NCBI GenBank assembly: GCA_963796285.1
Contig: CAWCKW010000012.1
Coordinates: 256,001-320,000 of the forward strand
DNA: 64,000 bases
From: Nitrospirota bacterium
GTDB taxonomy: Bacteria; Nitrospirota; UBA9217
Direction of reading: 5' to 3'
Shown: one piece after another, positions 23,246 through 53,116 of the stretch
Position numbering within the stretch: the first letter of the stretch is position 1
Layout of the letters: every line of letters starts with the position of its first letter
Notes under the pieces: generated by a model
The model's database searches: none
What the model saw: only the letters and a program-made list of their open reading frames with translations
What the model was told of the DNA's origin: nothing
Translations under genes and position numbers: made by a program

Positions 23246-23980
23246 ATGAATAATGCGACTAAAAAGACAGCGCTGGTAGTCGGTGGAAGCCGCGGGATAG
23301 GACGCGCCATTTCGCTCAAGCTGGCGAAGTCCGGTTTCAGCATCTGGCTGACGTATAAGGGCAACCACGAGGCTGCGCAAAAAGTAAAGGCCGAGATAGT
23401 CGCATCGGGAGGCTCCTGCGAGCTTATCCCGTTCGATGTCTCGAGTTTTGAAGAGACCGAAGCCGCTTTAAGCGCGCGCCTGGAAAACCTCTCACCCGAT
23501 GTGCTCGTGTACAACTCAGGTATCTCCCGGGACAACCTCCTGATGTGGATGACCAAGGACGAGTGGGGCTCGGTCCTCGCCACGAACCTGAACGGTTTCT
23601 TCAATGTGGCACGCGCGGTGGTCTTCTCGATGCTCAAGGCGAAGCGCGGGCGCATCGTTGTCATTTCGTCCGCGTCCGGGCAGATCGGGCAGGCCGGCCA
23701 GGTAAACTATTCCGCTTCGAAGGCGGGCTTGATCGGCGCGGCCAAGGCCCTCGCGCGCGAGGTGGGGAGGAAGAACATCTTCGTAAATGTGGTGGCGCCC
23801 GGCTTTATTGATACCGAGATGACCGAGAAGATCCCGAAGGAACAGGTCCTGCCCCTGATCCCGTTAAATCGCGTGGGCACGGTCGACGATGTGGCTTCGG
23901 TCGTGAATTTTCTGTGCACGGAACAGCATATGTATATTCATGGTCAGGTGATCGGCATCAATGGCGGACTGGCGATGTAG
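23246..23980 (+). CDS. fabG: 3-oxoacyl-ACP reductase (SDR)
   Basis: GGSRGIG, YSASKAG, VAPGFIDTEMT, INGGL. Confidence 0.9.
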   Translation: MNNATKKTALVVGGSRGIGRAISLKLAKSGFSIWLTYKGNHEAAQKVKAEIVASGGSCELIPFDVSSFEETEAALSARLENLSPDVLVYNSGISRDNLLMWMTKDEWGSVLATNLNGFFNVARAVVFSMLKAKRGRIVVISSASGQIGQAGQVNYSASKAGLIGAAKALAREVGRKNIFVNVVAPGFIDTEMTEKIPKEQVLPLIPLNRVGTVDDVASVVNFLCTEQHMYIHGQVIGINGGLAM

Positions 23981-24041
23981 TGCTGTTCCATGGATCTTTT
24001 AATTGATAGCGCGTGCTATTTCCCGGAAATAATCGACGACA

Positions 24042-25546
24042 ATGAAAAAATATGACGATATTGTAGTTGGGAGCGGCATCAGCGGTCTGACCATGACGCT
24101 TCTGCTCGCAATGAGCGGCCATCGCGTGCTGCTGCTTGAAAAAGCCCCCCATATCGGGGGCTCCCTTGCGCGGTTCTCTAAAAAAGGGGTCGCGTTCGAC
24201 ACCGGGTTCCATTTCACGGGCGGGCTTCATGAGGGCGGCATACTCTCCAACATCCTGTCGTTCCTCGGCATACGAGAATCCATTGAGCCGATCTTTCTTT
24301 CCGAGTCGTTCAGAAATCAGTTCTTTTTTGAATCAGCAGGCAAGCGATTCGAGCTCGCCAGTGGAATTGAAAACGGCAAGAAGCATCTCACCGGGTATTT
24401 TCCGGGAGAAGCGGGCGCCATCAGCAGGTATTTTGAAAAGGTGTCGTCGGTCTGCAGCCGGACCCCGTCGCTCAATATCTTTCAGAATGAAATCGCGCAC
24501 CCGAACCTGGACGAGGATTTCATTTCTCTCGATGCCGTCCTGAACGATCTGACCGCAAATGCGGTCTTACGGGGGCTGTTGTCCGGCTATGCAATGTGCT
24601 ATGGTGTGAGACCAACTGAAATCTCCTTTGCGAACCACAGCAGGATGGTCCTGAACTTCCATGAATCCATCTCCCGCGTGAAAGACGGCGGCGATGCCTT
24701 TATTAGGGCGTTTCAGGAAAAATTCAAAGAATACGACGTGGATGTCCGCTGCGGGACCACGATCGAGGAACTGGCGGATATCCAGGGCAGCAAGGTCGGC
24801 CGCTTTGTCCTGAATACCGGTGACGAGGTTTCTGCTGATTCCTGCGTGTTCACGATACATCCGAAAGAGATATTGAACCTGCTGCCTAAGGATCATTTCA
24901 GCAAGGCGTTTGCGGGCCGCATTACCTCATTCGAATCATCAGCCGGCTTTTTTTCGGTCTTTGCAACGCTCAAGCCGGGGAGCAGGGACCCAAATCCGGA
25001 GGCATCTATCATATCGCTCTTCCCGGATGCGGACGTCAACAAACTTTTAGACCCGGCATACAAAGGAATGCCTGCGCTTGGTCATCATGAAATTGCCGGA
25101 CTCGACCCAGGGCAAGGGAGATCAGGGCATATGCATCCTTGAACCCTCATTCTTCGAGCAAGTCTCTGCCTGGAAGGATTCCCGCAGGGGAAAGAGGCCC
25201 CAGTCGTATCTCGAATATAAGCAGGCGCGCGTTGAAGCGATCAAAGAACACATTTTCAGGGTGATTCCGGGATACCGGGAAAGTCTCGATATCATTGATG
25301 CCGGATCCATGCTGACCTTCAAGGAATATCTGAACAGTCCGGATGGGAGCGCCTACGGCGTGAAACAAAAGATGGGTCAGTTTAATCTCATCGGGAAGAC
25401 TTCCGCTCCATAATCTGTATGCGGCCGGCCAGAGTTCCGTGCTGCCGGGGATTATCGGCGCGATGATGTCTTCCTTGATCGTCGGCCGGGCTGTCGTGGG
25501 AAAGGAGCAGTACGGCAAACTGCTGAGCCAGGCGTCATGTCATTGA
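24042..25546 (+). CDS. Phytoene-desaturase-family FAD oxidoreductase (frameshifted)
   Basis: VVGSGISGL..LLEK..GG, FDTGFHFTGG, GSAYG, NLYAAGQS..PGIIGAMMS in shifted frames. Confidence 0.85.
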
Positions 25547-26763
25547 AGCGGGTCGTGATAACCGGGCTTGGCGTGGTTTCTCCCTTCGGGAATGGAATGC
25601 CGGCCCTCATGAAGGGGATCGAGGAAGGCCGGAGCGCGGTGCGGCGCATGGAAGGCTGGGAGCAGTATATCGGCCTGCGCAGTCTTGTTGGGGCGCCGGT
25701 CGAGATGCGGGATGAGAAGCGCATTCCGCGGCAGAAGCGTCGTTCCATGGGTCGTATGAGCATCTTCGCGGCACAGGCCGCTGACGAGGCCCTCGCCGAT
25801 GCGGGCATCTCCCTTGCCGGCGAAGACCTGTGGCGGGTCGGCTGCGTCATCGGCTCGACCATGGGGAGCGCTAAGAGCATCAACGATGCCTTTGAGACCA
25901 TGCTGCCGAACAAGGACCTGAGCCGGCTGAACTCTACCATGTTCTTCCAGTGCATGTCCCACACTGCGGCTGTGAACGTGGCCCAATATCTGGGACTGAA
26001 CGGTACGATCATGGCGCCGGCCGCTGCCTGTGCGTCAGCCCTTCACGCCATCGGCATGGGGTACGATCTGATCAGACTCGGGAGGCAGAATGTCCTCCTG
26101 TGCGGCGGGGCTGAGGAACTGCACCCCACGGTGACCGGATCCTTTGATATTCTTTTCGCCACCTCGACGAAATACAACGATAGGCCGCAGAAGACTCCGC
26201 GGCCCTTTGACAAGGACCGGGACGGACTGGTCTGCGGCGAGGGGAGCGGTCTGGTGGTCCTCGAGGACTACGAACGGGCGATCAAGCGGAACGCAAAGAT
26301 CTACGCCGAGATCAAGGGCTTCAGCACCACGGCGAATGGGCAACACGTGAGCCAGTCGAACAAGGAGTCCATGGTGGTCTGTATGCGGCAGGCGCTCCTC
26401 GATGCCGGGACGAAGTCCGGAGAGATCGATTATATCAATGCCCACGCCACAGCGACCATCCAGGGGGACCAGGAGGAGGCAGAGGCCATCGGGGAGGTCT
26501 TCGGTCCCACGGTGCCCGTCAGCAGCCTGAAGGGGTATATCGGCCATACACTCGGCGCTTCGGGCGCCATCGAGCTGGCTGCATCGCTCTTGATGATGGA
26601 ACAGGGCGTGATTTACCCGACGCTGAACCTGGACACGGTCAGTCCGGAGTGTGAAGGGATTCATCACGTAATTCAGCCGCTAAAAAAACAGATCAAGACT
26701 GTGCTGAAGAATGGGTTTGCCTTCGGCGGCATCAACGCGGCGCTGGTGTGCAGGAAAATATAG
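25537..26763 (+). CDS. Beta-ketoacyl-ACP synthase KS1 (FabF/ApeR-like)
   Basis: Cys-His-His triad: AAACAS, NAHATAT, GHTLGASG; FAFGGIN. Confidence 0.92.
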   Translation: MSLKRVVITGLGVVSPFGNGMPALMKGIEEGRSAVRRMEGWEQYIGLRSLVGAPVEMRDEKRIPRQKRRSMGRMSIFAAQAADEALADAGISLAGEDLWRVGCVIGSTMGSAKSINDAFETMLPNKDLSRLNSTMFFQCMSHTAAVNVAQYLGLNGTIMAPAAACASALHAIGMGYDLIRLGRQNVLLCGGAEELHPTVTGSFDILFATSTKYNDRPQKTPRPFDKDRDGLVCGEGSGLVVLEDYERAIKRNAKIYAEIKGFSTTANGQHVSQSNKESMVVCMRQALLDAGTKSGEIDYINAHATATIQGDQEEAEAIGEVFGPTVPVSSLKGYIGHTLGASGAIELAASLLMMEQGVIYPTLNLDTVSPECEGIHHVIQPLKKQIKTVLKNGFAFGGINAALVCRKI

Positions 26764-26932: not shown

Positions 26933-27199
26933 ATGATCGATCAGGAGATTATCAACAAGATCAATAAGGTGTTCGAGGAATCCTTTGAGATCGAGAAGGA
27001 GCGTCTTGTTCCGGAGGCGCATATCTTTACGGACCTTGGGCTGGACAGCCTGGATATCGTTGACCTGGTGGTCGCGCTCCAAAACTCTTTTGGTGTCAAG
27101 ATCAGGAACGAGGAAAAGGTCAGGGACATCCGCACCCTGCAGGACATCTATCAGTTCATTTCCTCGCTGAAACATGAGGAAAACAAGACGGTCTCGTGA
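26933..27199 (+). CDS. Acyl carrier protein ACP1
   Basis: DLGLDSLDIVDL; SD GGAGG. Confidence 0.92.
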   Translation: MIDQEIINKINKVFEESFEIEKERLVPEAHIFTDLGLDSLDIVDLVVALQNSFGVKIRNEEKVRDIRTLQDIYQFISSLKHEENKTVS

Positions 27200-27954
27200 A
27201 CATGCCGGATCGACTGAAACTGTATCTCCTGAACGTGTATTTTTACACGTTCTTCATACTGTTGTCCTCGATCGTAATCCCCGCACTGACGCTCGTCGTT
27301 GCGATATCGCGGCTCTTCACGTCGCACCGCAGGACCATGCAGCGCTTTCGCCGCGCTATCAGTTGGTACGGCAAGATCATTACGGCCATACCGTATCCGT
27401 TCATCCGGCTGCGGTATGAGGACCACGCGAAGGACGGACCCGGCGGTCCGTACATCTTCGTGAGCAACCACCGTGCGGCATCTGACGCGTTCCTCATGTG
27501 CGTTCTGCCGCAGGTGTGCGTGCAGATAGTAAATGTCTGGCCCTTCAGGATTCCCGTACTCGGGCTCTATGCCAAGTTTTCCGGATACCTGAACATCAGA
27601 ATGATGTCGCACGAACAGTTTTTGGAAAAAGCGACGAAGTTGCTGTCCGACGGGGTGTCGATCATTTTTTTTCCCGAGGGCACGAGATCGGCGAGCAGGA
27701 CGATGGGAAGCTTTCACAGCGCGGCATTTCGTCTGGCACTCGAGACGAAGACGCCCGTGGTCCCGCTCTGCATCACCGGGAACGAGAACATTCCTCTGAA
27801 AGGATCCCTGCTGCTGCGTCCAGGAACCATCCGGGTAAGGCGGCTGCCTGCCATCACCTGGGACGAGTATAAGGACCTGAATGCATTCGCCTTCAAGAAC
27901 AGGGTGTGGCATATTATCGATAGGGAACTGTCCATCATGGAGAGCGGCGCATGA
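27196..27954 (+). CDS. Lysophospholipid acyltransferase (PlsC family)
   Basis: NHRAASD, FPEGTRS. Confidence 0.9.
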   Translation: MNMPDRLKLYLLNVYFYTFFILLSSIVIPALTLVVAISRLFTSHRRTMQRFRRAISWYGKIITAIPYPFIRLRYEDHAKDGPGGPYIFVSNHRAASDAFLMCVLPQVCVQIVNVWPFRIPVLGLYAKFSGYLNIRMMSHEQFLEKATKLLSDGVSIIFFPEGTRSASRTMGSFHSAAFRLALETKTPVVPLCITGNENIPLKGSLLLRPGTIRVRRLPAITWDEYKDLNAFAFKNRVWHIIDRELSIMESGA

Positions 27955-29263
27955 ACGTGATGGAATTCCATCGGAACAGAATGCTGGAGTTCTCCAAACC
28001 GGAGGAGATCAGGAACGTACAGGAAGGGTTACTGAAAAAGCATATCCAATATTGCTCAGCCCATTCGCCCTTTTACCGGAAGCTGTTCCGCGAGCAGAGG
28101 ATAGACAGCGGAGCAGTGAACCTCGACACCCTGCGCGAGTTCCCACTCACGGACAAAGCCGCACTCAGCCAAGCAAATGACGATTTTCTTGCTGCGCCGA
28201 TGTCGCAGATAGTGGACATCGTTCTGTCATCAGGGACCACCGGCAAATCGACGACGATGATGTATACCGAGAACGATCTCAGGCGGCTGGCTTACAACGA
28301 GGAAATCTCCTTCACGAGCTGCGGACTGACACGAGACGATATCGTACTGTTGACCTGCACCATGGACCGCTGTTTCATCGCCGGTCTGGCGTACTTTTCC
28401 GGGATCCGGAGCCTGGGCGCAGCGGCGATCAGGAACGGCTTGAGCAGCGTCGATAGCCATCTCGAGATCATCCAGCGGCTGAAGCCAACGGCCATCGTGG
28501 GCGTACCGACGTTCCTGCTCAAACTGGGACACTATCATGAAATCCCAGGACATCGATCCGCGCGGGTCCGGCATAAGCAAACTGATCTGCATCGGAGAAC
28601 CAATCAGGGAACGCAGCCTCGCGTTCCTGCGGGTAGCGGAAAGCCTGGAAGAGGTTTGGGGGGCGAAGATCTATTCGACCTACGCGTCCTCGGAAACCAT
28701 CACATCGTTCTGCGAGTGCATTGCCCAGCAAGGCGGACACCTTCATCCTGACCTTGCAGTGGTGGAGATCGTGAATGACCAGGGTGAGGTGCTCCCACCC
28801 GGCGAACCGGGTGAGGTGGTGATAACGCCCCTGGCGATCGAAGGTATGCCGCTTGCTCCGGTTTAAGACCGGTGACATCAGTTTTGTCATTGATGAACCC
28901 TGTGCCTGCGGGCGGCATTCGCCGCGCCTGGGTCCCATCCTCGGGAGAAAGAAGCAGATGATCAAGTTTCGCGGGACGACGCTGTATCCCAATTCGCTCT
29001 ACACGGTCCTCGATTCGTTCCACGGGATCAGCGAATACTACGTGACCGCAACAAGCGATTACGACCTCTCCGATGTGATCAAGGTCACTGTTGCCGTGAA
29101 AGATACCTCCTGCTCCGCCGACATGATCATGGATAAGCTCCAGGCACACCTGCGGGTGAGACCCGAAGTGGTCATCGTGAGCGAAGAAAGCGTGAAGCGT
29201 GAGGTGTACCCCGGGAATTCCCGGAAACCAATTCGATTTGTGGATAAGAGAAAAAACATATGA
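27951..29263 (+). CDS. Phenylacetate-CoA-ligase-like adenylating enzyme (frameshifted)
   Basis: SSGTTGKS, YASSE, PL(L)RFKTGD, GRKKQMIKFRG. Confidence 0.85.
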
Positions 29264-30748
29264 AAACCTGTCAAAGTAGCATCTATGGCGCAGAATTCTC
29301 CCGGGAGGAAATCGCCGCTGCCGTCCGGGACAACAAGCTGCTCTCGATGGAAATCGAGTTCAACAAGAGCTGTAATTTCCGGTGCCTCTACTGCTATGCG
29401 TCGGATCATACTGTTCATCGGAACGAACTGAGCAAACATGAGTTTCTTGATCTCATCAAGCAGGCCAGGGAACTGGGCGCGAGGAAAATCATCGTCCTTG
29501 GCGGTGAGCCCATGCTCTATCCTCCTATCATCGAGATGATCCAATACATCAGGGGTCTCGATATGGACGTCGAGCTTTTCACGAACGGGACGAACATCAC
29601 ACGAGAGATGGCTCAGACGCTGTATGACCTCGGCGTCCGCGTGGTCCTCAAGATGAACACGTTCGAGGAAAAGATCCAGGACATGCTTTCGGGAAGGAAA
29701 GGCGCGTATGCCCAGATCCATGAAGCGTTCAACAACCTGAAACTGGCCGGCTATCCATCGGCGGACCGTTTCATGGGGATCAGCACGGTCATTTGTCAGC
29801 AGAACATCGATGAGCTCCCGAAGATGTGGGAGTGGCTGCGGGACCAGAACATCGCTCCCTATTTCGAGATGATCACCCCGCAGGGCGGCGCTAAGGAACA
29901 CAATATGCTTGAAGTCGATTCCCGGCAGGTCGAGGAGCTGTTTCACCGGATCTCCCGGATCGACCGGAAAAAATACGGACACACCTGGGACCCCAAGCCT
30001 CCGCTCGTCGGTGGAGAGTGTCTTCGTCACCAGTTTTCCTGCGCAGTCAACTCCGAAGGCTTTGTGCAGCCGTGCGTCGGCGTTACGATCCCGATCGGCA
30101 ATGTGCGCAAGCAGCGGCTCAAGGACATTCTGCAGGAGAGTGAGGTGGTCCAGGACCTCAAGAACTATACCGAGACCATCAAGGGACCGTGCAGCGAATG
30201 CGAACGGCTGAACGAATGTTACGGCTGCCGGGGAGCGGCATACCAGATGACCGGCGACTACCTTGCTTCCGACCCCCTGTGCTGGAAGAACCTGGATAAA
30301 CGGGATGATATCATGTTCCTGCCGGTGGATGCCAGCCAGCTCGTTCCGCACAAACAGCCCATGCTTCTCATCGACCGGCTCCTCGAGATCCAGGAGCGGG
30401 CGTCGCTGTCCGAGATGATCGTGCGTGCCGGACATGGTCTTCGTGGGGAAAGACGGGAAGCTCGATGACGCCTCATATCCTGAGATCATATCCCAGGCCA
30501 TCGCCGCACAGGAGGGGTTTCGAAAGATCGGGAGCCGCAATCCTCAGCAGGAAGGCTTCCTGCTCGGCATCAAGAACCTTGAGATCATCGGCAGCGCACG
30601 CGTCGGCGACACCCTGCGCATATCAGTGTTCAAGGTCGCGAAGTACGGCGACTTCGGCATTATCCAGGGAGAGGTCAGGAATGGCGATGCCCTGATCGCC
30701 AGCGGAGAAGTAAAGGTCTGGCAGGGCGACGGCAAGGCAGCGGCATGA
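29260..30748 (+). CDS. Radical SAM/SPASM protein fused to a C-terminal hotdog dehydratase (ApeP/FabZ-like); frameshift near 30427
   Basis: CNFRCLYC, GGEPML, SPASM CSECERLNECYGCRG..DPLC, then in the same frame LVPHKQPMLLIDRLL; EIISQAIAA..GFLLGIK continues in the next frame. Confidence 0.85.
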
Positions 30749-31441
30749 TGATGAACGGGAATAACTGAGAATGAGCGTTGTCCTTCGCTGGTCCTGTGCA
30801 TCCTGTGCGCACGCCGGACACGGTTTTTGCGGACGACGCTGAACAAAGGAGGACGCTGCCGGAACAAGCCGACCTGTCCGCGTTGCTGAACCGCATCGGG
30901 AAAAAGGTCTCGGACTTCAAGACCCTCAAAACGGATTTCACCCAGGAAAAAGAGATGGCCATGTTCAAGGAGAAGCTCGTGCTCAAGGGCAGGATCTATC
31001 TCCAGAAGCCGAACAAGGTCGCCTGGCATGTCGATAAGCCCCTCCGGTATTCCGTCCTGATCACCGATAAATTTATCCGTCAGTGGGACGAGGACACGAA
31101 CCAGGTCCAGGAAATATCGTTGACAAAGAACCCGATGTTTCAGAACGTGATCAGGCAGCTGACCGTATGGTTCTCCGGCGAGTACGGCTCGCTCCTCGAG
31201 ACCAATGACGTGCGGCTGGTGAAACGCAGCCCCCTGGTGCTTGAGTTCTCGCCCCGCGCCAATAATGACGCCAGGAAGGTCCTGAAGAACATTACGATCA
31301 CGTTCCGCGAAGATGAAACCTATTTACAGCAGATTCGCATGCAGGAACTGAGCGGAGATGTCACGACGATCACGTTCCTGAACACGATCCTGAATGCCCC
31401 TCTCGACAGCGACAAGCTTTGAGGTAAAAGGGCATGTTTGA
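30748..31441 (+). CDS. LolA-family outer-membrane lipoprotein carrier-like protein (ends frameshifted, coordinates approximate)
   Basis: TLKTDFTQEK, GRIYLQKPNKVAWHVDKP, GDVTTITF. Confidence 0.8.
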
Positions 31442-33833
31442 TCAGGTATTTCTCCCTGCTGTACCAGTTTGTATTCCGGCATAAAAAATGGGTCCTCGCT
31501 TGCGTCCTTGCTGATAACCGTTGCTGCCGGTGCAGGGTTGTTCCTTGTCCGCTACGAAGGCAATATCGACATCATGCTTCCGCCGGACAAGGAGGTCATG
31601 CCGGAGCATGAACTTCCTGCGGGATTCGAGCCTGTCGGACAAGATCATCGTCTCCCTGCAGCTGACCGATCCCGCAAAAAACAAGAAAGACCTCTTCCTT
31701 GCTGTTGACCAGCTCGCAGCAACGCTCACAGCCGCCTTACTTTACCAAGGTCATTTCCGGCTTCTCGGTCGTGGATGTCATGGAGGAGTTCTCGCATCCT
31801 CCGCTATGCCCCCCAGATCCTGGGAGAGCAGGACCTTGCCTGCCATCGACGGCCAGATCAACAAAACGACGGTAGACCAGAAGATGCGGGCGATCTACCG
31901 GCAGTCGCTCAGGCCCGAAAGCATCTTCATGACATCGTTGTCACGCACGGATCCGCTCGGGATCAAAGTGCTCCTGCTGGATAAGCTGCGGGCGCTCCCC
32001 GCATCCATGGGGTATGATGTCGCGATCGAGGACGGGCCACTTCATCAGCCGCGACGGGCGTCATGCCATGCTGATCATCCAGACCACGGTCCCGATGATG
32101 GACAGCCAGGGGAGCAAGGAACTCATCGCCGCCCTGCAGGAGCGGCTCAAACAGCTGCCGGCGTTCATTTCCGCGGACGTTATCTGCGGCCACCTCCATA
32201 CGGTCAGCAACGAGCGCGTGATCAAACGCGATATCATGGTTGCATCGGCAGTGGCATCCATCGCCTTTCTCATTCTTTTCACGGTCGTTTTCCGCGATCT
32301 TCGGGCGCTCTTTGTCTTCATCATACCCCTGATCGCGGTCGTCTGGGCGATCATCATAACCACCGCGGTGGAAGGCAGACTATCGTATCTCGTCATCGGA
32401 TTCGGGTCCGCGATCGCGGGCATTTCGATCGACTACGGTCTCCTTGTGTATATTGCGATGAAGCGGGGCGCTGATGCTTCGCAGACCGCGAAGCTCGCAC
32501 GACTGGTCATCATTGACGCAGTCACGACCATGTTCAGTTTTTTGGTTCTTTATTTTTCCATGATCCGCGGGTACCACCAGCTCGCGTTGTTCTCGGCGCT
32601 CGTTGTGTTCATCTGCCTTGTTTTCTCTCTCTTTGTATTGCCGCTCATGCTGTCATGGAAGCACTACACCCTGGTCTCTGACCCGACCATCGGCGACCGG
32701 TTGCGGAAGGTAAACTGGCCCGCTCCGTTGGCCGTCGGCGTCTGGGTGGTCCTGACGATCGCGGCGCTGGTCCTTTCCTTTTCCGTGAAGTTCGACAGCG
32801 ATGTGAAAAAACTGGACGGCAGCGCTCCCGAAGTGCTCCAGGCGGAACAACGGTTCCACGAAGTATGGGGCGGCAAGACAAACCAGGCGATCTTTGTCGT
32901 GACCGGATCGAGCTATGAGGATGCCATGGAGCGGAACGACCTCATCTTCCGCGAAGCGGCAAAAGCCATCGGGCCGCAGAACATTTCGAGCATCGCCCTG
33001 TTCTGGTCCTCGGAAAAAATGCGAGAAGAAAATATCGACCGCTGGGACCGGTTCTGGCAGGAGGGGCGTGAGGCGAAGCTTAAGAGGTTGATCCGTGTGA
33101 CATCGTCTTCGTATGGTTTTTCGGACAAGGCTTTTTCCCCGTTCTTTGACGGGCTGTACACTCACCAGATCGAAACAACGAATCCGGAAGGCCTCATTGC
33201 AAGACTTCAGGAACGCTTTGTTGTGCAAAAGGACGGGGAATACCGGATCATGTCCTTCTTTCCCGACGATCAGCAATACGTCGATTCGCTCACACGCGAT
33301 ATCCAATAAGCATCCCGGGAACGTTCATCGTATCGGGCAGGGTGCTGTCCGCATCCATATCGGCATTTACGTCAAAGGAAATAAAGATCCTGGCCCCGCT
33401 GGCGATCCTGTTCAACGTGGTCCTCGCATGGATGTTCTTCCGGAACTGGAAAGAGACCTTTATCGCCCTGGTGCCGGTCATCACCGGCGTTATCTGGCTC
33501 GTGGGCATCATGTCGCTCTTCAAGATGCCGCTCAATGTCGTCAATATCGTTGCCGCTATCGTCACGACCGGCGTTATCGTGGACTATGGCCTCGGGATCA
33601 CCTATGAATACCGGTACAACCTGCGCATCGGGACGGTCATTGCCGTGACCTTGTCCGCAGGTGCGAACGTGATCGGCTCCGGGGCCCTGCTGTTCGCCAA
33701 ACATCCGGCGCTCTATTCCACCGGCGTTGCAATGGTCATCTGCATGGTCTCGGGATACCTGTCTTCGGTGATCGTGATACCGTCCCTGTGCAGCATCCTG
33801 GGGACGTCGAAACAGGAAGGGCTACAACCATGA
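31434..33833 (+). CDS. MMPL/RND-family lipid exporter (frameshifted)
   Basis: Two TM bundles with GISIDY and GVIVDYG motifs and large periplasmic loops. Confidence 0.85.
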
Positions 33834-42078: not shown

Positions 42079-42366
42079 ATGGAGAAGAACAAGGAGCAGG
42101 AACTGGCGGCAATACGCAAGGAACTCAAGGAAATGATCGTCCGAGATCTCTCGCTCGAAGACATCAATCCGGCGGATATCAAGGATGATGAGGTCCTGTT
42201 CGGGGAAGGCCTCGGCCTGGATTCCCTCGATGCTGTCGAGATCGTGGTGCTGCTGCAGCGCAACTTCGGCATGGAAGTGAAGAATATGGACCAGGGGAAA
42301 GAGATTTTCCATTCCATCGATACGATAGCCCATTTTGTATATGAGAACAGGAAAAAAGACTCGTAA
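42079..42366 (+). CDS. Acyl carrier protein ACP2
   Basis: LFGEGLGLDSLDAVEIVV; SD AAGGAG. Confidence 0.92.
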   Translation: MEKNKEQELAAIRKELKEMIVRDLSLEDINPADIKDDEVLFGEGLGLDSLDAVEIVVLLQRNFGMEVKNMDQGKEIFHSIDTIAHFVYENRKKDS

Positions 42367-42388
42367 TGCCAGCATTACAGGCATCGTG

Positions 42389-43399: not shown

Positions 43400-43413
43400 A
43401 GAATGCAGAAACT

Positions 43414-44595: not shown

Positions 44596-45662
44596 AGATC
44601 TCCGGGATCGGCGTGATCTGTTCGCATGGCCTTGGCGTCGCCTCGTTCGAGCAGGCCCTGAAAAGCGGCTGGCAGAAACCCGGGGAAACTGCGGCCCATT
44701 GGCTGGGGGGTGAAAAAGCGCCGGCATATCTCGTCAAATTTGATGCTTTGCCGGATAAGACGTTGCTCAAAAAAATCCGGCGTGCCGATGCCGTGAGCAA
44801 GATGGCCGTGCTCGCCGCGTCCGATGCCCTGTCGGACAGCGGTATAGAAGACATTGGCAGCAAAAGACTCGGGATCATCGTGGCCACGGCCTTCGGTCCC
44901 CACGTGACCACATTCGATTTTCTGGACGACATCCTTGATCACGGAGATGCCGCTGTCTCGCCGACCACGTTTTCCAATTCGGTGCATAATGCCGCAGCCT
45001 CCTACATCGCCATGGCGCTGAATATCAAGGGCCCGACGCTGACGATCACCCAGTTCAGGTTCTCGTTCCAGTCAGCGCTGCAGCTGGCGCAGGCCTGGCT
45101 CGACCAGGGGCGGTGCGACTACGTTCTTGCCGGGGCGGTGGACCAGTATGGCGACGTCCTGGGGTACGTATCCGATCATAAACTGACGACAGCGAAGGAC
45201 GGCAGGATACAACCCTTTGCGTTCAACCCCACCTGCCAGGTCCCGGGCGAGGGCGCCGCCTTCTTTCTGTTAAGCAACGGGAGTGAGGGGAATGTGTATT
45301 GCTCCGTCAACGCGGTCCACACCAATGATGACCCGGGACAGGGGATGTCCGTTGATATCAATATTATCGACGCCGACGGGATGTTGCCTGACGAGTCCGC
45401 CTACATCGCATCCCTGTCGAATGACATTCCAACGGCGGCCTATTCGCCGGTCTTCGGGAGTATGATGATCGGCAGCGCATTCAACGCGGCCGCTGGAGCG
45501 CTGATGCTGAAACAGCAAACGCGCTATGCGACTCCGGTGCAGGACAACCCACGGGGCATCCGCATGCTCACTGAGTCGGGGAGCGGCCCTCTTGAAACGA
45601 TCCGCTGTACAGGGTATAACTGTTACGCGGAAAGATCAGTGATTTACCTAACGAAGGTATGA
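44592..45662 (+). CDS. KS chain-length-factor-like protein
   Basis: IRRADAVSKM, SPTTFSNSVHNAAA; catalytic Cys position replaced (TITQFRFS). Confidence 0.82.
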   Translation: MKISGIGVICSHGLGVASFEQALKSGWQKPGETAAHWLGGEKAPAYLVKFDALPDKTLLKKIRRADAVSKMAVLAASDALSDSGIEDIGSKRLGIIVATAFGPHVTTFDFLDDILDHGDAAVSPTTFSNSVHNAAASYIAMALNIKGPTLTITQFRFSFQSALQLAQAWLDQGRCDYVLAGAVDQYGDVLGYVSDHKLTTAKDGRIQPFAFNPTCQVPGEGAAFFLLSNGSEGNVYCSVNAVHTNDDPGQGMSVDINIIDADGMLPDESAYIASLSNDIPTAAYSPVFGSMMIGSAFNAAAGALMLKQQTRYATPVQDNPRGIRMLTESGSGPLETIRCTGYNCYAERSVIYLTKV

Positions 45663-45706
45663 GTTCGGTGTTGCTTTCGTTCACGACGAGCCGAAAAAGC
45701 TTTTTA

Positions 45707-45803
45707 GCCACAGAGATCACAGAGAATACAGAGTGAAGCGAAAACGAGAAAAGTCTTCATTTCACTGCTCATGTTTCTAGCTTTTCTCTGCGCACTCTGT
45801 GGC
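45707..45803. repeat. Intergenic inverted array of 9-bp repeats
   Basis: gccacagagat cacagagaa tacagag faced by tctctgcgca ctctgtggc. Confidence 0.7.
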
Positions 45804-45860
45804 AAAATTATCCTGAAATTTTGAGAAGAAAAAACCTTTAGTCACTAACGCGTGAGGCTT

Positions 45861-46109
45861 ATGAATATGACTGTTCAGGAAATAGAAAATACGTTGATCA
45901 ACGGCATCGCCTCCATCTCGAATCAGGACGCTTCGGCCGTAGCGCCGGACAAACCGTTCCATGAACTGGGGATCGACTCGCTCGGGTTCATCGAGATCCT
46001 CGTGTTCATTGAAAAGACCTTCAAGCTTCCGCTGATAGCGTCGGACTTGACCAAAAAGGACTTCGAGACCATACATTCCCTGGCATCATATATCAGCAGC
46101 AGGTTGTAG
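45861..46109 (+). CDS. Acyl carrier protein ACP3
   Basis: ELGIDSLGFIEIL. Confidence 0.88.
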   Translation: MNMTVQEIENTLINGIASISNQDASAVAPDKPFHELGIDSLGFIEILVFIEKTFKLPLIASDLTKKDFETIHSLASYISSRL

Positions 46110-46122
46110 TCCGGAATTCGCT

Positions 46123-47454
46123 ATGCTGGTATCCAAACATAAACGGTACCTCTCCGGCTCCGACTGGGTGATCAACACCCTTGATCATATGATGAAGGCC
46201 ACGACCTGCGCTGGAAACATGTCGCAGGTGGTTCTTGTGCTGGACGGGCTTCTTGATGAGTCCGAGGTCAGGAGCCGATTAAACGCTTTTGTGAAACAGT
46301 TCCCGGTATTGCAGGGGCAGCGTGAGCCGTGATATCAAGCTTGCCCCTTACTGGAAGATCCCGGCGAAAGCGGTCGGCGAAATAACGCTTACGGCCGGGC
46401 ATGTTGATGACCTGTTGTCCGGCGGGACGATGCCTGACTCATTTTGAAAAAAGCGCGAATGTCCCTTTTCAACACAACAACGATCATGTGGCGTTCCATC
46501 TTTTCAGCGACCGCGGGCGAAGCATGTTCGCCATGGCCTTTGACCACCGTATCTTTGACGCACGGGGCGCGGAGATGTTTTTGAACTTGTTCCAGCAGAG
46601 TGTGAAGAGCGGTGCTTCCACCGTGTCCGGCGATATTGCCTTTGCCTCATCCTCAGCCTTGACCCAGTGGTCGAGGAAGTTTCTGGCCGGCCGGAACGTG
46701 AACCGCAGGATCATCGGCGCTGTCGAAATCATCGCACCGAAGCTTTGCCGGTTCCGCGGGAGGCAAGGGATCTTTCCGCTATCATCTCCTCTCATTCACG
46801 GAGCAGGAGACAGCGGCTATTTACGACCGGGCCTACCACCGAGGCCGGGTACCTCATGGAGTCTCCGTATCTGCTGTCCGTGTATCGTGCAGAGCATGCA
46901 TGAGCTGTTCATGAGCAGGCAGGCGACCGGCTCCAGCTATCTTATCCCCGTGACCATGGACCTGCGGACCGGCCTGGATCCGCTGCAGGAAATATTTTTC
47001 AACTACGTGTCCTACCTTTTTTATCAGATCCCGGTCCCTGAGGCTGATGATCGAAAGGGATTGATTGCCTTGCTCAAGCAGCAGATGTACGATCAGGTGA
47101 AGTCCGGCTTTCCCAGGGACCTCGCGGAAGCGAGTCTGCTGACCCGCATCGCGCCGCTGCCCGTGCTGGGGAAACTGCTTCACCTTCCGATGAAAGGGAA
47201 AATGGCAACCTTTGCATTCTCCCATCTCGGGAAGAGCTCATACCAGCATCCCTCTGTTCATGGATAAGAAGGTAGCGAATATTTTCCATATGCCGCGCGT
47301 TCCGGTTCCGCCGGGTCTGGGCTTCTTCAGCAATTATTACAACAGCAAGCTCAACGTGGTCATCTCCTATCTGGACGGAGTGCTCACCGATGACGATGTT
47401 CTGGAGCTTGACAGGGGGATCAGGGAGCGATTCGGCGTGGTGAGTGTCTCATGA
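46123..47454 (+). CDS. Condensation-domain/CoA-dependent acyltransferase-like protein (frameshifted)
   Basis: [10 protein letters not shown] (HxxxD), [19 protein letters not shown]. Confidence 0.7.
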
Positions 47455-48663
47455 GTACTTCCTGCGATGTGCTGGTGGTCGGCGGCGGCGTCGCGGGTGC
47501 GACGGCTGCGGTTGCCGCGGCGCGGGGCGGCGCCCGCACGATACTCGTTGAAAAGGAACTGCTATCTCGGCGGCACCGGCTTCGCCGGCAGGTTCCAGTA
47601 TATCTGCGGTCTTTACCTGAATGCGTGATACGGTTCCGACAGAAACCCTGAACCCCGGGATCACCCGCGAGATCTCCGGAACTGTTGTTCAAGGCCTCGC
47701 CGGGGAAAGGCATACAGAAGATCGGTCAGGTATACGCACAGCCTTACAACTACGATGACCTGCAGTCAGTTCTCGCGTCGCTGTGCCGGGGAGAGAGCAA
47801 TCTGGCCGCGCTGCAGGGGCACTCCGCAATAACGGCCACGATGGACAGCAATGAGATCGCGCTCGTCACGATAGAAGATTCGCACGGCCGGCAGGAGATT
47901 GCACCGAAGATGGTCGTTGATTGCTCGGGCAGCGGTGAAGTTGCCGCCCTTGCTGGCGCTCCATTTGACCTCACTCCGAAGGATGAACGGCAGCTGGCTG
48001 GATTCGTGGTCCACGTGAAAGGGCTCAGGGACGTGGATGAGAACCTGTCCCTCAAGGTCCCCTATCATCTTGCGCAGGCGGTGAAGCAGGGGATATTCGC
48101 GCCTGCGGTAAAATTAACGACCTTCAGTCCCGGCGATGCTGCTGATGAAGGGTATTGCAAGATGAGCGTTTTCAGTACTGACGAAGTGACAGTGACGGAG
48201 AAAAGCCCGAACAGCCGCGGATGCGGCTATCAGGTATCTCGCTTCGGTCTTGCCTGCTTTTGAAGGCGCTTATATTGCGGATACCTCGCTCAAGGTGCTT
48301 GAACGTGAAGGCAGGAGGGTCATTGGAGAGTATATGCTTACGAAGGAAGACGTGCTCTCTGCCAGGAAGTTTCCCGACGGCGTTGTGAAGAACGCCTGGC
48401 CGATCGAGCTCTGGGACAGGACAAAAGGCACGATCTATAAATACGTTCCGCGCGGGGAATATTACGAGATCCCGTTCAGGTGTCTTATGGTCAGCGGGAT
48501 CAAGAACCTGCTGACTGCGGGACGGTGCATATCGGTCACTCATGAGGCGCTTGGTTCCACGCGGGTGATGGGCACGTGCATGGCCCTGGGAGAGCAGGCT
48601 GGCAAAGCTGCCGCGTATCGGGTCAGGAACGGGAAGTATCCGGAGAAGGTCAAGATAATCTAA
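47451..48663 (+). CDS. FAD-dependent oxidoreductase (frameshifted)
   Basis: [60 protein letters not shown]. Confidence 0.85.
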
Positions 48664-48822
48664 ACTTCAAAGTGCTGAACTCACAAACAATTGCCGGAAA
48701 TACGAAGTCCAAAATTCAAACGTATTTGCCAGTCTTGAGGTCGCTTTAGTAATTGCAGATTCGTTTAGAATGATTTGATGATTAGTTATTTAGTGCTTGA
48801 TACAGTATCAAAGGGGGTATCA

Positions 48823-50263
48823 GTGCGAATATTACTCGTAAAACCGAATCCACAACTGCTCGTGGCAAGGCGCCTGCAGGAGGGGTTCCTGCACCTCGAA
48901 CCGCTGGAGCTTGAAATGGTGGCCGGCGGCGTGCCGCCTGAAGACGAGGTCGTTATCCTGGACCTGAGCTTTGAGAAGGACCCCATCCTCGGTTTTCAGA
49001 ACAAACTGCGCGAGATGAATCCCCAGATCGTCGGTTTCACCGGCTACAGCAGCCAGTCGGCTTTGGTAAAGTCCCTGGCAGATCTGGTGAAAAAGCATGA
49101 CCCAAAGATCGTGACCGTGGTCGGCGGGACGCACGCTACGATCATCCCGGCGGACTATGCATTGAACGGCAAAGGCATCGACATCATCGTGCGCGGCGAA
49201 GGGGGCACGGCGTTCGCCGAGATCGTAAGACGCTATAAGAAAGGCGAACCGCTCTTCTTCGGTGATGCCGTCCTCTCGCCGAAAGACCCTGATTTCGCGG
49301 TAAAGGCCGCAGCACTGCCTCCGGAATTCCCGGCGGTCGACCAGATCCCGCGGGCGCGTCGCGACCTCGTAGACCGGTCCCGCTATTTCTGCGTCTGGAC
49401 CTCGAGCACGGAAAAAAAGCTCGACACCATTTTCCCGCGGACCGCGAGCATGCGTACCTCGACGGGATGCGCTTACTCGTGCTCCTTTTGCGTTGTGCAC
49501 CACTTGATGCGCGGCAAGTATCTCCAGCGGCAGCCTGAGGACGTCGTGGACGAGATCGAGAAGATCTCAGAGAACCATATCTATTTCGTGGACGATGAAA
49601 CGTTCCTGAACAAGGACCGGTTGACAAAGATCGCTAATTTATTGCTTGATAAGGGGATCAAAAAGCAGTATATCAGCTGGGCGCGCGCTGATACGATCGT
49701 AAAATATCCCGAGTTGTTCAAACTCTGGAAGCAGGCCGGGCTTAGCGTGGTCTACGTCGGCCTCGAGGCCATGGTAGGATCAAGGCTCGACAAGTATAAG
49801 AAGCGGACGAGCGTGGACACGAACAGAAAAGCGATAGAAATTCTGAAAGAGATCGGCATCACGCTTCACGCGAGCTTCATGGTCGATCCGGACTTTTCGG
49901 TCCAGGACTTCAGGGACCTTGAAAAGGAGATAATGAAGGTTTGTCCGGCCGAGGTCACCTTTACCGTATTTTCACCATCGCCCGGGACCGACCTCTGGCA
50001 TACACATAAGAACGATTATATCGTCGACCCGTATCTGTATTATGACTGCATGCACACGATCCTGCCCACGAAGCTTGACATGAACCTGTTCTATTCGCAT
50101 TTCGCGAAGCTGTCGCGGGTGGCGCTTCAGGCGAACCCGCTGCAGGGTGAACAAGGTCAAAGTTCCCTTTCGTGAGACGGTCAAGATCATCTACCTTGGA
50201 ACACGGTATATTTTCGCCATGCGGAATATCTATAAGGACTATCTGCCGAAGAACAGGGCATGA
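48823..50263 (+). CDS. B12-binding radical SAM protein 3 (frameshift near 50143)
   Basis: EPLELE, VVGGTHAT, RGEG, GCAYSCSFC, FVDDET, GLEA, SPSPGT. Confidence 0.88.
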
Positions 50264-51688
50264 ACATATTTGACACCATACAACGCGAGACGGGAAACTT
50301 CTTGCACAAGACCGCGGTGATCGAAGATGATGACCGCATTACCTACGGACAGCTGATCGCTGCTGCTGAACAGGTTGCCGAGGCCTTACGACAGCTCGGC
50401 GTCGGACGGCTTCACCGCGTCGGACTTCTCTGCGACGACAGCATTGACTACATCATCGTGAGTCTTGCTATTTTGTCACTCTCGGCCGTTGTGGTACCGG
50501 TTTCGCCCGAACAGACGGCGGAGGAATCCGAAACAGTCATCGACAGGATCGACATTGATTTCCTGATCGCCGAACCGAGTCTGTGGCAGGGGGGATACGG
50601 CGACCCGCTGCAATCGGGCGGTCTCTTTAAAAAAGAATTTACCATCGTGAAGAGGACGACCAGAGAGCGTCCGAAGGCCGAGTATTTCAGGATCAACCCC
50701 GCGTTCATCAGGTTCAGCTCCGGCACCACGGGCACGAGCAAGGGGGTGGTGCTGTCGCACGAGGCGATCATCGAACGGACCGATGCCGCTGACCGGGGTC
50801 TCCGGATAACGTCAGAGGACACCGTGGTCTGGGTGCTGTCCATGAGCTACCATTTCGTGGTCACGATCCTCCTGTTCCTGCGGCGCGGCGCGACGATCGT
50901 GCTCTGCGGCCACAATTATCCGAAATCGATCATAGAAGGGATCAGGTCGCATCAGGGGACCTTTATCTATGCCTCGCCTTTCTATTACAGCCTCCTGTCG
51001 CGAACCGATGCGCTGCCGGGCGATGCCTTGAAGCAGATCCGCCTTGCGGTCTCAACGACCATGAAGCTGCCTGAACAAGTGGCAGAGGAGTTTTCAGCCA
51101 AGTTTGGTTTTGAGCTGACCGAGGCCTATGGGATCATCGAGGTCGGTTTGCCGTTTATCCGGCTTTCGCGGAGAAAGGACAAGCGGGGTTCCGTGGGAAA
51201 GCCGCTGCCGGATTTCGAGATCAAGCTCGACAAGAAGGATGCCGATGGAGTAGGGGAAATCCGGATCAAGGGCAAGGGGATGCTCGATGCCTATTATTCT
51301 CCCTGGCAGGGCAGGGAGGACATTCTGAACGACGGCTGGTTCAAGACCGGCGATCTGGGGAAAATAGATGAGGACGGTTTCCTGACGATCGTGGGCAGGG
51401 AAAAGGAAGTGATCAATTTTGTGGGCATGAAAATGTTCGCCCAGGAAGTGGAGTCTGTTCTGAACCAGCACCCGCAGGTGAAGGAGTCCCTGGTGTACGG
51501 CGCTGCGCACTCGCAATACGGCCAACTGCCCATGGCGAAGATCGTATTGCGGAACGGGAACGACGTTATGGACGTATATGACTCTGCGGCGCTTCTGCTA
51601 TCAGCGGCTTGCGCAGTACAAGGTGCCGAAGGATTTTGCATTCGTTGACAGCATACCCAAGACCGCAAGTGGAAAGATAAAACGATGA
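50260..51688 (+). CDS. Class I adenylate-forming enzyme (acyl-CoA/ACP ligase; frameshift near the 3' end)
   Basis: FSSGTTGTSKG, EAYGIIE, WFKTGDLG, PKTASGKI. Confidence 0.88.
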
Positions 51689-53116
51689 AAATCCTGCTGA
51701 TCAATCCCTTTGGCTCGAACTGGGTCGAAGGCATGGAAGACAATTCCGAGACCGCCATTCGCCTGGCGCCGAACGGCATCCTGTCAATTGCCGCCTATCT
51801 TCTTGGAAAAAGGGCATGAGGTGGAGGTACACGACTGCCGGGGGGCAGTAAGCCGCATCGGCGCCGACGATGTCCTCTCCCGCGTCCGGTCCTTCAAGCC
51901 CGACCTGGTCGGGTTCACGGCAGTGACGTCGGGTTTTCTGAATGCCTATCGCCTGACGGAAGAGATCAAAAATACAGCCCCTCACATCACGATCGTATTC
52001 GGCGGCGTGCATGTCTCCGCCCTGCGCGGGAAGATCCTGGCGTCCTATCCTGCCATCGACTTTCTGGTGACCGGCGAGGGAGAGCAGGCCATGGCAGAGC
52101 TTGCCGCGGGCGCAAAGCCCGGGACGATCCAGGGGCTGGTGTATCGCGAGGGGGACGGAGATCAGGGACAACGGTCTGCGGACCGATCTGTGCGCGCTTG
52201 ATTCGCTTCCGTTCCCCGCGTACCACAAGCTTGAGGGCTTCCCGAAGAAAGTACGAGGCAGCGCTGTTCAATTACCCGAAAGCACCATCAGCAACGATCA
52301 TCTCAAGCCGCGGCTGCCCCTACCAGTGCTCGTACTGCGACCGCTCGGTGTACCGCAGGAGCTTTCGGTACAACTCGGCTGAATATCTCTACGAGCACAT
52401 GGCGTTCCTGAAAAAAGAATTCGGTATCCGGCACGTGTTCTTCTACGACGACCTGTTCACCTTTAACCGCGAGCGGATCGAGAAGTTCTGCGGACTCCTG
52501 CAGGCGAAACCGCTCAAGATGACCTTTAATTGCGCAGTGCGCGTCGGACACATCGATGACGAACTGCTCAAGATGTTGAAGGCGTCGGGCTGCTGGATGG
52601 TAAGCCTCGGCATCGAGTCGGGCGCGCCCGGAGATCCTTGCACGGCACAAGACCCAGGTGGATTTCAATGAGATGAAGACAACGGTGAAGCGGATCCAGA
52701 AGAGCGGGCTGAGGGCCAAAGGCCTCTTCATGATGGGGCTCCCGGGAGAGACCGAGGCGACCATCCGGATGACGACCGATTTCATCACGAACCTGGAACT
52801 CGACGACATGAACATGACCAAGTTCACACCCTTTCCGGGAGCGCCGATCTACCAGACGATTCATGACGAAGGCGTATTTGATGAAAAGTGGGAACTGATG
52901 AACTGCCTGAACTTCGTCTTCGTGCCAAAAGGGATCGAGTCCAAGGAGCGGCTCGACGAGCTCTACAAACAATTCATCAAGCGCTTTTACACCGGGAAGA
53001 ACTGGACCCGCAAATTCGGTCCGCTTATGTTTAAGTCTCCCAACAGCACCTATCGGATCATCAGAAACCTTCCGACCTTTATCAAGATCAAGCGTGATTT
53101 CGAGCCGAAAGAGTAA
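51685..53116 (+). CDS. B12-binding radical SAM protein 4 (frameshifted)
   Basis: VFGGVHVS, TGEGE, SSRGCPYQCSYC, FYDDLFT, GIESG, MMGLPGET, TPFPGA. Confidence 0.88.

Follow-up and report, generated by a model that had tools for sequence, protein, structure and literature searches.

A conserved 28-gene cluster with five radical SAM enzymes in a Nitrospirota genome: a candidate pathway for an exported, aryl-polyene-lipid-like outer-membrane lipid

The cluster reported here is a run of 28 co-directional genes at positions 23246-53116 (+) of a 64,000-nucleotide stretch of a Nitrospirota genome (GenBank assembly GCA_963796285.1, contig CAWCKW010000012.1; hereafter the window), and it is compared first with two kinds of described systems. 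The first is the family exemplified by kuste3335-3352 of the anammox bacterium Kuenenia. The passages of Rattray et al. (2009; PMC2649909) that deal with these genes report a 'striking' synteny with Desulfotalea, mention similar clusters in Geobacter and Pelobacter carbinolicus, and record polyunsaturated hydrocarbons but no ladderanes in Desulfotalea. The corresponding section of Javidpour et al. (2016; PMC4790861) lists for Kuenenia a glycosyltransferase, a phytoene-desaturase-like protein, two radical S-adenosylmethionine (SAM) enzymes, a phenylacetyl-CoA-ligase-like enzyme, FabF paralogues, acyl carrier proteins (ACPs) and a deacetylase-like protein. In the relevant part of a Cariaco Basin preprint, biosynthetic gene clusters that antiSMASH calls 'ladderane' are reported from Desulfobacterota, Myxococcota, Omnitrophota and other phyla, and are described as expressed and of unknown function. 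The second is the aryl polyene (APE) and aryl polyene lipid (APEL) system encoded by apeA-R in E. coli CFT073 and Xenorhabdus doucetiae. In the APEL pathway of Xenorhabdus the chains borne by two ACPs are the aryl polyene and a conjugated C26:5 acid. A lysophospholipid is acylated by ApeD, ApeJ both transfers N-acetylgalactosamine (GalNAc) to the lipid phosphate and acylates this sugar, and ApeM, ApeL and ApeN move the lipid out to the outer membrane (bioRxiv 10.1101/2020.12.19.423268).

The window resembles the Kuenenia/Desulfotalea/Geobacter/Pelobacter family in its adjacent radical SAM pair, phytoene-desaturase-like flavoprotein, phenylacetyl-CoA-ligase-like enzyme, glycosyltransferase, deacetylase-like protein, FabF paralogues (one of them non-canonical), ACPs and FabG, as these are described in the cited sections (PMC2649909, PMC4790861); loci from Geobacter and Pelobacteraceae are collinear with it in direct comparison. 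In contrast, the Kuenenia gene list as printed there names two SAM methylases, FabZ and a VacJ-like protein, and no LolA, MMPL or DUF3261 protein (PMC4790861). The loci that we recovered with the family's marker protein, TIGR04072, include no record from Kuenenia or Desulfotalea; both were likened to the window by published gene descriptions, and orthology with kuste3342/3343 is by those descriptions and the family name, not by sequence. Around TIGR04072 the window has the second radical SAM gene, the CrtI-like flavoprotein and the PaaK-like ligase of the cluster-family description.

With the APE/APEL systems it shares a ketosynthase (KS) alongside a KS:chain-length-factor (CLF) pair, at least two ACPs, a ketoreductase, a putative ApeI:ApeP-type dehydratase, a thioesterase, an AMP-ligase, a PlsC-type acyltransferase, a glycosyl-/acyl-transferase, MMPL/LolA/DUF3261 export and the lack of an enoyl reductase; the APEL product logic is a lipid-phosphate-N-acetylhexosamine (HexNAc) with polyene chains (bioRxiv 10.1101/2020.12.19.423268). 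The ape core elements found are KS, CLF, ACPs (two over their cut-offs and a third), ketoreductase, MMPL, LolA-like and DUF3261 proteins. Beyond APE/APEL, the window adds five radical SAM enzymes, two flavoproteins, a NodB-type deacetylase, a condensation-fold transferase, a PaaK-type ligase and a second KS:CLF:ACP module. Unlike APE/APEL, it has no ApeB-type SAM methyltransferase, its ApeP-like half forms part of a radical SAM/SPASM protein, and the two functions of ApeJ correspond to two separate genes. On balance, we think it probable by this analogy that the cluster is functional and makes and exports an APEL-like outer-membrane lipid, whose best reading is an exported, radical-tailored polyunsaturated acyl-aminosugar lipid. 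An initial annotation of the window, made from its letters alone, had proposed ladderane-island genes on an APE/flexirubin-type scaffold, in an apparently non-anammox host, as the source of an exported, radical-tailored glycolipid: both gene sets are present, same-genus genomes are titled Nitrospirota or Nitrospiraceae metagenome-assembled genomes (MAGs), and the glycolipid stands as a reasonable inference, with its polyene nature and its methylation or cyclisation as conjecture.

Gene families were assigned by Pfam and NCBIfam scans of the forward-strand open reading frames (ORFs) and then of their intact orthologues in G001, a genome of the same genus; matches below the cut-off of an NCBIfam or Pfam model denote the nearest named relative only. 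Every gene class listed in the initial annotation was recovered where it had been placed; its run of about 26 co-directional genes also held, with the count rising to 28 by orthology with the intact G001 proteins. Its borders are right: pheS, pheT and a DUF3617 gene lie 5' of the cluster, and a rhomboid gene, a response regulator and a sigma-70 gene lie 3' in the Pfam scan of the window. Since 24 of the 27 gene junctions in G001 overlap or are separated by at most 55 nt, and as the relatives described below retain the set, this is a conserved 28-gene operon-like cluster of anaerobes.

A search with the TIGR04072 protein gave 6621 matches at E <= 1e-3 among 8000 scored; the best 120 relatives are all at least 72% identical, and most of those named by their source are called 'lipid biosynthesis B12-binding/radical SAM protein'. 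We found 36 related loci with this protein, in MAGs of Nitrospirota/Thermodesulfovibrionia, in Desulfobacterota (a Geobacter MAG, a Pelobacteraceae MAG and Desulfamplus magnetovallimortis) and in Omnitrophota. Genes of these loci were labelled with the 28 G001 proteins, and 35 loci were assessed for collinearity: gene order is collinear in 32, the exceptions being Desulfamplus, in which the PaaK gene has moved, and two loci where fragments were mislabelled, and all 28 genes are collinear between the window, G001 and a second genome, G002. The gene for a divergent radical SAM protein, here termed rSAMw, lies directly upstream of the TIGR04072 gene in 34/34 loci and a GT2 glycosyltransferase gene directly downstream in 33/34; the distal module, from KS3 to the last radical SAM gene, is also found in Omnitrophota and Desulfamplus. 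Since the identical 28 genes recur in identical order in other genomes, the arrangement is far beyond chance.

Of 401 genomes sampled from the window's phylum, 71 have a TIGR04072 score over the cut-off (6 of 8 in its own genus, 26 of 63 in its own family), as does none of 14 control genomes; in the Desulfamplus phylum, 25 of 401 genomes have a match at E <= 1e-140. The initial annotation had treated the gene combination as a peculiar mix. This did not survive the comparison: judging from gene order, it is the standard collinear architecture of a widespread family and not a peculiar hybrid, a family already met in Rattray et al. (2009) and among the 'ladderane' clusters of antiSMASH as those sources describe them. 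A second TIGR04072-scoring gene of the host genome, outside the window (G000:C10:21934-23166 (+); 392.6 bits, 34% identity to the cluster enzyme), was considered as a sign of a second cluster and rejected, there being no other cluster gene near it. The same-genus genome G002/G136 also has a second such gene (403.8 bits), and in many genomes of the phylum this lower-scoring class (~360-430 bits) is the sole one present.

The CxxxCxxC motif is kept in all five radical SAM proteins. One of them is a radical SAM/SPASM enzyme (29260-30748, Radical_SAM and SPASM; one frame change near 30424-30431; like all cluster genes, on the forward strand) fused to a C-terminal ApeP/FabZ-like hot-dog domain; its motif LVPHKQPMLLIDRL is present in the window. 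The last ~130 residues hold an invariant FabZ-like motif, LVPH-K-x-P-M-LL-ID-R, and the best Pfam match of the C-terminal 150 aa is ApeP-like PF22817 (E 2.8e-4, 21 bits against a cut-off of 27). In a structural model of the fusion, with a mean predicted local distance difference test score (pLDDT) of 62.8, C-terminal blocks at 66-90 and a low-confidence SPASM region and linker, residues 366-494 match FabZ 1u1z (Z 14.2, root-mean-square deviation (rmsd) 2.8 Å over 121 residues) and the Xenorhabdus ApeI:P structure 6qsr_B (Z 14.1, rmsd 4.0 Å over 128 residues, 26% identity), and residues 10-343 match the SPASM/twitch enzymes SuiB, PqqE, SkfB and anSME. From the motif, the PF22817 match and the structural match of the fused domain, we therefore take the predicted dehydratase pair to consist of this hot-dog domain and an ApeI-like protein (34533-34886; PF22818, E 1.8e-4, ~22 bits against 28.5) that keeps the invariant GFQGHFP motif. 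Both halves of the dehydratase pair in the initial annotation thus have candidates, not as two separate genes but with the ApeP/FabZ-like one fused to the radical SAM/SPASM protein.

The adjacent pair at the centre of the cluster consists of rSAMw and TIGR04072. rSAMw (37342-38613), a divergent B12-like/radical SAM protein with B12-binding and Radical_SAM matches near their cut-offs and a CRFNCFCC motif, is better conserved than any other protein of the cluster (mean column identity of 82% across 20 orthologues, which come from three phyla). The second protein (38577-39980) matches TIGR04072, 'lipid biosynthesis B12-binding/radical SAM protein' (rSAM_ladder_B12), with 615.4 bits against an equivalog cut-off of 360 over profile positions 1-442 of 443, and is a full member of this "ladderane-type" B12 enzyme family; a literature search on TIGR04072, 'lipid biosynthesis B12-binding' and rSAM_ladder_B12 found no paper. 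A predicted complex of the two proteins scored 0.00 against a mark of 0.32, which is uninformative either way. The nearest solved structure to TIGR04072 is that of TsrM (6wte, E 7.5e-31; PDB 6WTE/6WTF), a cobalamin-dependent tryptophan C2-methyltransferase. As its active site is described in the pertinent passages of PMC8992657, Arg69 lies in the lower axial space of cobalamin and Glu273 blocks SAM binding to the cluster, making TsrM non-radical. The equivalent of Arg69 is retained in 120/120 family members, the window included, and is thus shared, unlike Glu273, whose equivalent is Val in 118/120 and likewise in the window. Because the SAM-blocking Glu is replaced by Val, the sequence suggests that TIGR04072 may well couple a TsrM-like methylcobalamin site to an enzyme still able to do radical chemistry.

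The two remaining radical SAM enzymes are of B12-binding type and lie at the distal end. The first (48817-50260; CAYSCSFC motif, one frame change) is HpnR-like, scoring 222 bits against a cut-off of 650 for this hopanoid C-3 methylase; the second (51685-53116; CPYQCSYC motif, three frame changes) is HpnJ-like, its intact orthologue scoring 187.5 bits with HpnJ (cut-off 577.6) and 148 with BchE.

Of the chain-building genes, the first in the cluster (23246-23980; intact, 86% identity to G001) encodes a FabG-type ketoreductase (adh_short, E 7e-51) that is FlxB-like under the FlxB cut-off (289 bits in the window, 294.1 in G001, cut-off 340) and exceeds that of FabG NF004200 (278 bits against 273). 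It is followed by a CrtI/amine-oxidase-like flavoprotein (24042-25546; Amino_oxidase and NAD_binding_8; 498 aa in relatives; frame changes near 25079 and 25400) with 56 bits for crtI_fam against 238; the second flavoprotein (47451-48663) is of the FAD_oxidored type, with PF12831 on both halves, 266.8 bits in the intact orthologue and a frame change near 48204. Aligned with G001, and with motifs checked in the window, three KS have the catalytic Cys-His-His and both CLF-like proteins lack the Cys. KS1 (25537-26763) is of PRK09116/ApeR type (434.6 bits against 470). KS2 (35371-36626) has the N- and C-terminal ketoacyl-synt domains and two frame changes, and is followed by CLF2 (36661-37340), a short protein (224 aa) with a weak ketoacyl-synt match, one frame change and, in the alignment, no active Cys and no C-terminal domain. 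KS3 (43411-44595), of PRK09185/ApeO type (orthologue 285.8 bits against 407), has three frame changes and overlaps CLF3 (44592-45662; ketoacyl-synt and Ketoacyl-synt_2), which has neither Cys nor His in the alignment. The three catalytic KS, two CLF-like and five radical SAM proteins of the initial annotation are thereby borne out by, respectively, the Cys-His-His motif, the missing Cys and CxxxCxxC.

The three ACPs are ACP1 (26933-27199; PP-binding, PRK05350 73.9 bits against 65, DSL serine motif), ACP2 of PRK09184 type (42079-42366; NF006617 76.2 bits against 70, GLDSL motif) and ACP3 (45867-46109; PP-binding, GIDSL in the translation). Two adenylating ligases are encoded: a PaaK/FlxY-like one (27951-29263; frame changes at 28535 and 28853), whose intact orthologue scores 457.7 bits with FlxY against 520, and a FadD/MenE-type AMP-binding one in an ApeH-like role (50260-51688; AMP-binding, E 5.4e-55; one frame change). 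A 4HBT-type thioesterase (34891-35374; 4HBT_2, one frame change near 35098) would take the ApeK role. No enoyl-reductase-type gene appeared in any Pfam scan of the window ORFs or the G001 orthologues.

Among the genes for export and tailoring, an LPLAT/PlsC-type acyltransferase (27196-27954; PF01553, E 1.4e-19, intact) would fill an ApeD-like role. A LolA-like periplasmic lipid carrier (30778-31422; LolA, E 6.9e-19; LolA2_flexi 111.8 bits in the window and 117.3 in G001, cut-off 125), an MMPL/RND exporter (31422-33833; MMPL match on the intact orthologue, 793 aa in relatives, at least two frame changes) and a DUF3261 protein (33830-34509; 24.5 bits against 22.3 in the G001 orthologue, two frame changes) are adjacent and would take the roles of ApeL, ApeM and ApeN/LolB, respectively; the best NCBIfam matches of the exporter are HpnN and BstA, far under cut-off (HpnN 93 against 752). 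Downstream of TIGR04072 lie the GT2 glycosyltransferase with a DUF2062 membrane domain (39952-41166; Glycos_transf_2 and DUF2062), apparently of the lipid-phosphate sugar transferase type, an LpxL/HtrB-type acyltransferase (41144-42046; Lip_A_acyltrans) and a NodB-type polysaccharide deacetylase (42335-43399; Polysacc_deac_1). The best NCBIfam matches of the GT2 enzyme, all under cut-off, are PpgS, AglJ and ArnC; PpgS and ArnC transfer sugars to lipid phosphates.

The initial annotation had counted three acyltransferase types. They are present, with the third corrected to a stand-alone protein (46063-47454; 440 aa in relatives, several frame changes) with no Pfam or NCBIfam match in the window ORFs or the G001 orthologue and with the predicted fold of a condensation domain. 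Its AlphaFold2 model (pLDDT 72.6, predicted template-modelling score 0.79) has C, E and Cy domains of nonribosomal peptide synthetases as its top Foldseek matches in the PDB (E ~1e-19, TM 0.56-0.75), and an invariant D-H-x3-D-A-R-G motif, DHRIFDARG in the window, is the counterpart of the condensation-domain HHxxxDG. Its neighbours in the ESM Atlas are hypothetical proteins, most commonly from Planctomycetota and Omnitrophota, and two neighbour clusters have a minority (18-26%) annotated Condensation or WS_DGAT. Given the fold and the motif, we consider this protein to be a predicted fourth acyl-transfer enzyme.

Gene content, collinearity across phyla, the intact catalytic motifs and the artefactual nature of the frameshifts are shown here; the steps that follow are drawn by analogy with APEL. 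The two ligases would prime the carrier proteins, and KS1 with the two KS:CLF pairs would extend chains on the three ACPs, together with the FabG-type reductase and the ApeI-like/ApeP-like dehydratase; because no enoyl reductase is encoded, the chains would be expected to stay polyunsaturated. With half of the dehydratase fused to a radical SAM/SPASM enzyme, radical chemistry would likely act on ACP-bound hydroxy or enoyl intermediates during chain growth. The TsrM-like TIGR04072 enzyme, its invariable partner rSAMw and the HpnR-like and HpnJ-like enzymes may C-methylate or rearrange the chain or the sugar. The PlsC-type transferase would load a chain on a glycerophospholipid, GT2 would add HexNAc to the lipid phosphate, the NodB-type deacetylase would free the HexNAc amine, and the LpxL-type and condensation-fold transferases would attach the special chains: since the NodB-type deacetylase and these two transferases are extra relative to APEL, they suggest that the HexNAc is de-N-acetylated and re-acylated. 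MMPL, LolA and DUF3261 would then carry the product to the outer membrane.

A partial parallel is provided by the hopanoid system, with, as outlined in the relevant section of PMC13459092, the glycosyltransferase HpnI, the deacetylase HpnK, the radical SAM ring-contraction enzyme HpnJ and the B12 radical SAM C-3 methylase HpnR. In both, a lipid-linked HexNAc would be added and deacetylated before a B12-type radical SAM step, a second B12 radical SAM enzyme would methylate the lipid, and the HpnN-like RND protein would be the outward lipid mover of the analogy; HpnJ, HpnR and HpnN are the best named matches of three window proteins (187 bits against 578, 222 against 650 and 93 against 752, respectively). 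Unlike a hopanoid, the lipid of the window would be polyketide- or fatty-acid-derived, and HpnK has a deacetylase fold other than the NodB type.

Several points weigh against the proposed APEL-like lipid pathway. The Pfam scores of both the ApeI-like and the ApeP-like domains fall under the gathering cut-offs, as do the scores of the intact orthologues with the flexirubin equivalogs FlxB, FlxY and LolA2 under their curated cut-offs; the putative roles of all five radical SAM enzymes go by their nearest named relatives, whose scores, TIGR04072 excepted, are far under cut-off. The public contigs that speak for intact reading frames are 90-99% alike to the window and might stem from different strains. 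The cluster family is an orphan one, and the relevant section of PMC4790861 reports that Kuenenia homologues expressed in E. coli gave no new fatty acid. A further-reaching version of the same pathway, which we regard as doubtful, would have the product be a non-isoprenoid polyene aminoglycolipid methylated or carbocyclised by cobalamin/radical SAM chemistry, which would be for an anaerobe, from acetate, what carotenoids or hopanoids are elsewhere, with the radical SAM-dehydratase fusion modifying ACP-bound enoyl intermediates as the chain grows, in the manner of Jaw5 in jawsamycin, and the same enzymes having been extended to ladderanes by anammox bacteria.

Similarly doubtful in our judgement is a true APE/flexirubin-type pigment, in which an aromatic acid activated by the PaaK/FlxY-like or the FadD-like ligase would start a conjugated polyene, with the role of the B12 radical SAM enzymes limited to decorating the aryl head. 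Flexirubin FlxB, FlxY and LolA2 are indeed the named families with which the reductase, the PaaK-like ligase and the LolA-like protein score highest, as APE-type PRK models are for other proteins, a putative ApeI:P-like dehydratase is encoded, and the nearest characterised relatives of TIGR04072, TsrM and BzaD, methylate aromatic carbons. Against this, every Flx equivalog cut-off is missed, if narrowly, and five radical SAM enzymes with a second KS:CLF:ACP module occur in no characterised APE cluster. For the aromatic starter of APE/APEL no route was found: neither an aromatic ammonia-lyase (PF00221), such as the tyrosine ammonia-lyase of the flexirubin pathway, nor the UbiC chorismate lyase (PF04345) was found anywhere in the 96%-complete genome, and DarA/DarB-type dialkylresorcinol genes were missing from the Pfam scans of window ORFs and G001 orthologues, as the initial annotation had claimed for both.

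We consider it quite unlikely that the cluster is an anaerobic polyunsaturated fatty acid or hydrocarbon route of the kind proposed by Rattray et al. for the Kuenenia and Desulfotalea genes, in which the CrtI-like flavoproteins and radical SAM enzymes desaturate ordinary acyl chains. Two flavoproteins and no encoded enoyl reductase in the window would suit it, as would the hydrocarbons of Desulfotalea, which has a syntenic cluster and no ladderanes as far as that account of it goes (PMC2649909). The link between hydrocarbons and cluster is hypothetical, however, and the route leaves unexplained the GT2 enzyme, the deacetylase, the three acyltransferase types and the LolA/MMPL/DUF3261 set. The E. 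coli result noted above tells against it too, as does kuste3336, which is described in the same section as having no CrtI activity (PMC4790861).

That the window's copy is a decaying, non-functional cluster, its frameshifts being true pseudogene lesions, we hold to be very improbable. The indels noted in the initial annotation are in the sequence: alignment of the 28 intact G001 proteins shows that 14 genes are whole and that at least 23 frame changes are spread over the other 14, and there are no long homopolymers at the frameshift sites, so that the type of error cannot be named from context. The lesions found are single-base frame changes, and there are six stop codons inside matching segments, all confined to four genes that are also frame-changed. 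The indel-dense stretch starts 5' of the cluster, at ~20.7 kb, and takes in pheT (20759-22463 (+)), the sole pheT of the genome, which is split over five reading frames just downstream of a whole pheS (19548-20645). With rpoB and dnaE of the host whole as well, the defect is local and reaches an essential gene. We also compared positions 27001-47000 with public contigs from four metagenome runs of three studies (peat, sediment and wetland): exactly one base is missing from them at the frameshift sites 28535, 31842, 43573, 44190 and 46320, and at several further places, and among the 12 indels listed, 11 are bases present in the window alone (84 more lie beyond those listed). Of the 28 proteins, 27 are 50-93% identical to their G001 counterparts (DUF3261 has 44%), all catalytic motifs are retained in the window, and the cluster is intact in same-genus genomes. 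Coverage by long ORFs did not set the cluster apart from the rest of the genome, this measure being inflated by opposite-strand ORFs and hence uninformative. As pheT is split too, the public contigs lack the extra bases, the motifs are kept and the same-genus cluster is intact, the frame changes are assembly errors in a mis-assembled and probably functional copy, and the suspicion that they are real lesions of a dead cluster does not hold. For this window, frameshifts should not be read as gene decay. The host genome, of 13 contigs with the largest 2.06 Mb and a completeness of 96.2%, looks like a long-read MAG. In a further place, 771-2352 (+), a PAS/HisKA kinase (771-1928) and a HATPase (1927-2352) lie in adjacent frames, possibly through another single-base assembly error. 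Matches to TIGR04072 or rSAMw are split or stop-interrupted also in the Nitrospirota MAG loci L024, L031 and L013, so frame-broken copies are not unique to the window.

Least probable of all is that the cluster makes ladderanes (cyclobutane lipids) in a non-anammox host: the window shares TIGR04072, the CrtI-like flavoprotein and the PaaK-like ligase with the kuste3335-3352 island, but its host is a member of the Nitrospirota, Desulfotalea with its syntenic cluster has no ladderanes in the account of PMC2649909, the family is common (the 71 and 25 genomes above), and anammox work, in the parts of it that we cite here, now favours instead kuste3603-3608, a different cluster conserved across anammox genera ('Cluster I': amxACP, amxFabZ, an amxFabF2/FabFmut heterodimer, PDH and one B12 radical SAM enzyme), with a 2026 review stating in its treatment of the question that no ladderane route is experimentally supported.

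Some features of the cluster and its surroundings may be recorded separately. The gap between CLF3 and ACP3 (45662-45867) is a variable point across relatives: an extra SPASM-like radical SAM gene lies in or near it in L003 (~17100-20300), L002, L011, L029 and L035, and many public contigs break off or diverge at 45685-45737, where their loose ends differ. Where KS2 gives way to CLF2, contigs of two public runs skip ~180 bases (36483-36664), and the KS2 frame of the window extends ~140 bases beyond the end of the G001 alignment. An Rfam scan of the window found three tRNA genes only, at 6316-6388 (-), 55323-55396 (+) and 56558-56631 (+), and no riboswitch at the cluster. Downstream, large SBBP beta-propeller-repeat proteins are encoded at 56808-59376 (+), the second of them (58519-59376 with 58698-59258) possibly frame-split, and the segment 60001-62000 has a G+C content of 0.38, against 0.50-0.57 elsewhere, with ORFs that have no Pfam match.

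The cluster is another Nitrospirota copy of a known orphan cluster family rather than a new discovery; what is new is the annotation of the condensation fold of the 440-aa protein, of the SPASM-ApeP-like fusion and of the likeness of TIGR04072 to TsrM. With 28 genes and five radical SAM enzymes, it ranks among the largest orphan lipid clusters conserved in anaerobic bacteria, and its unusual enzymes recur in the anammox island that was originally put forward as the source of ladderanes. As cultivable carriers exist in Geobacter, Pelobacter and Desulfotalea, the question of its product is directly testable.

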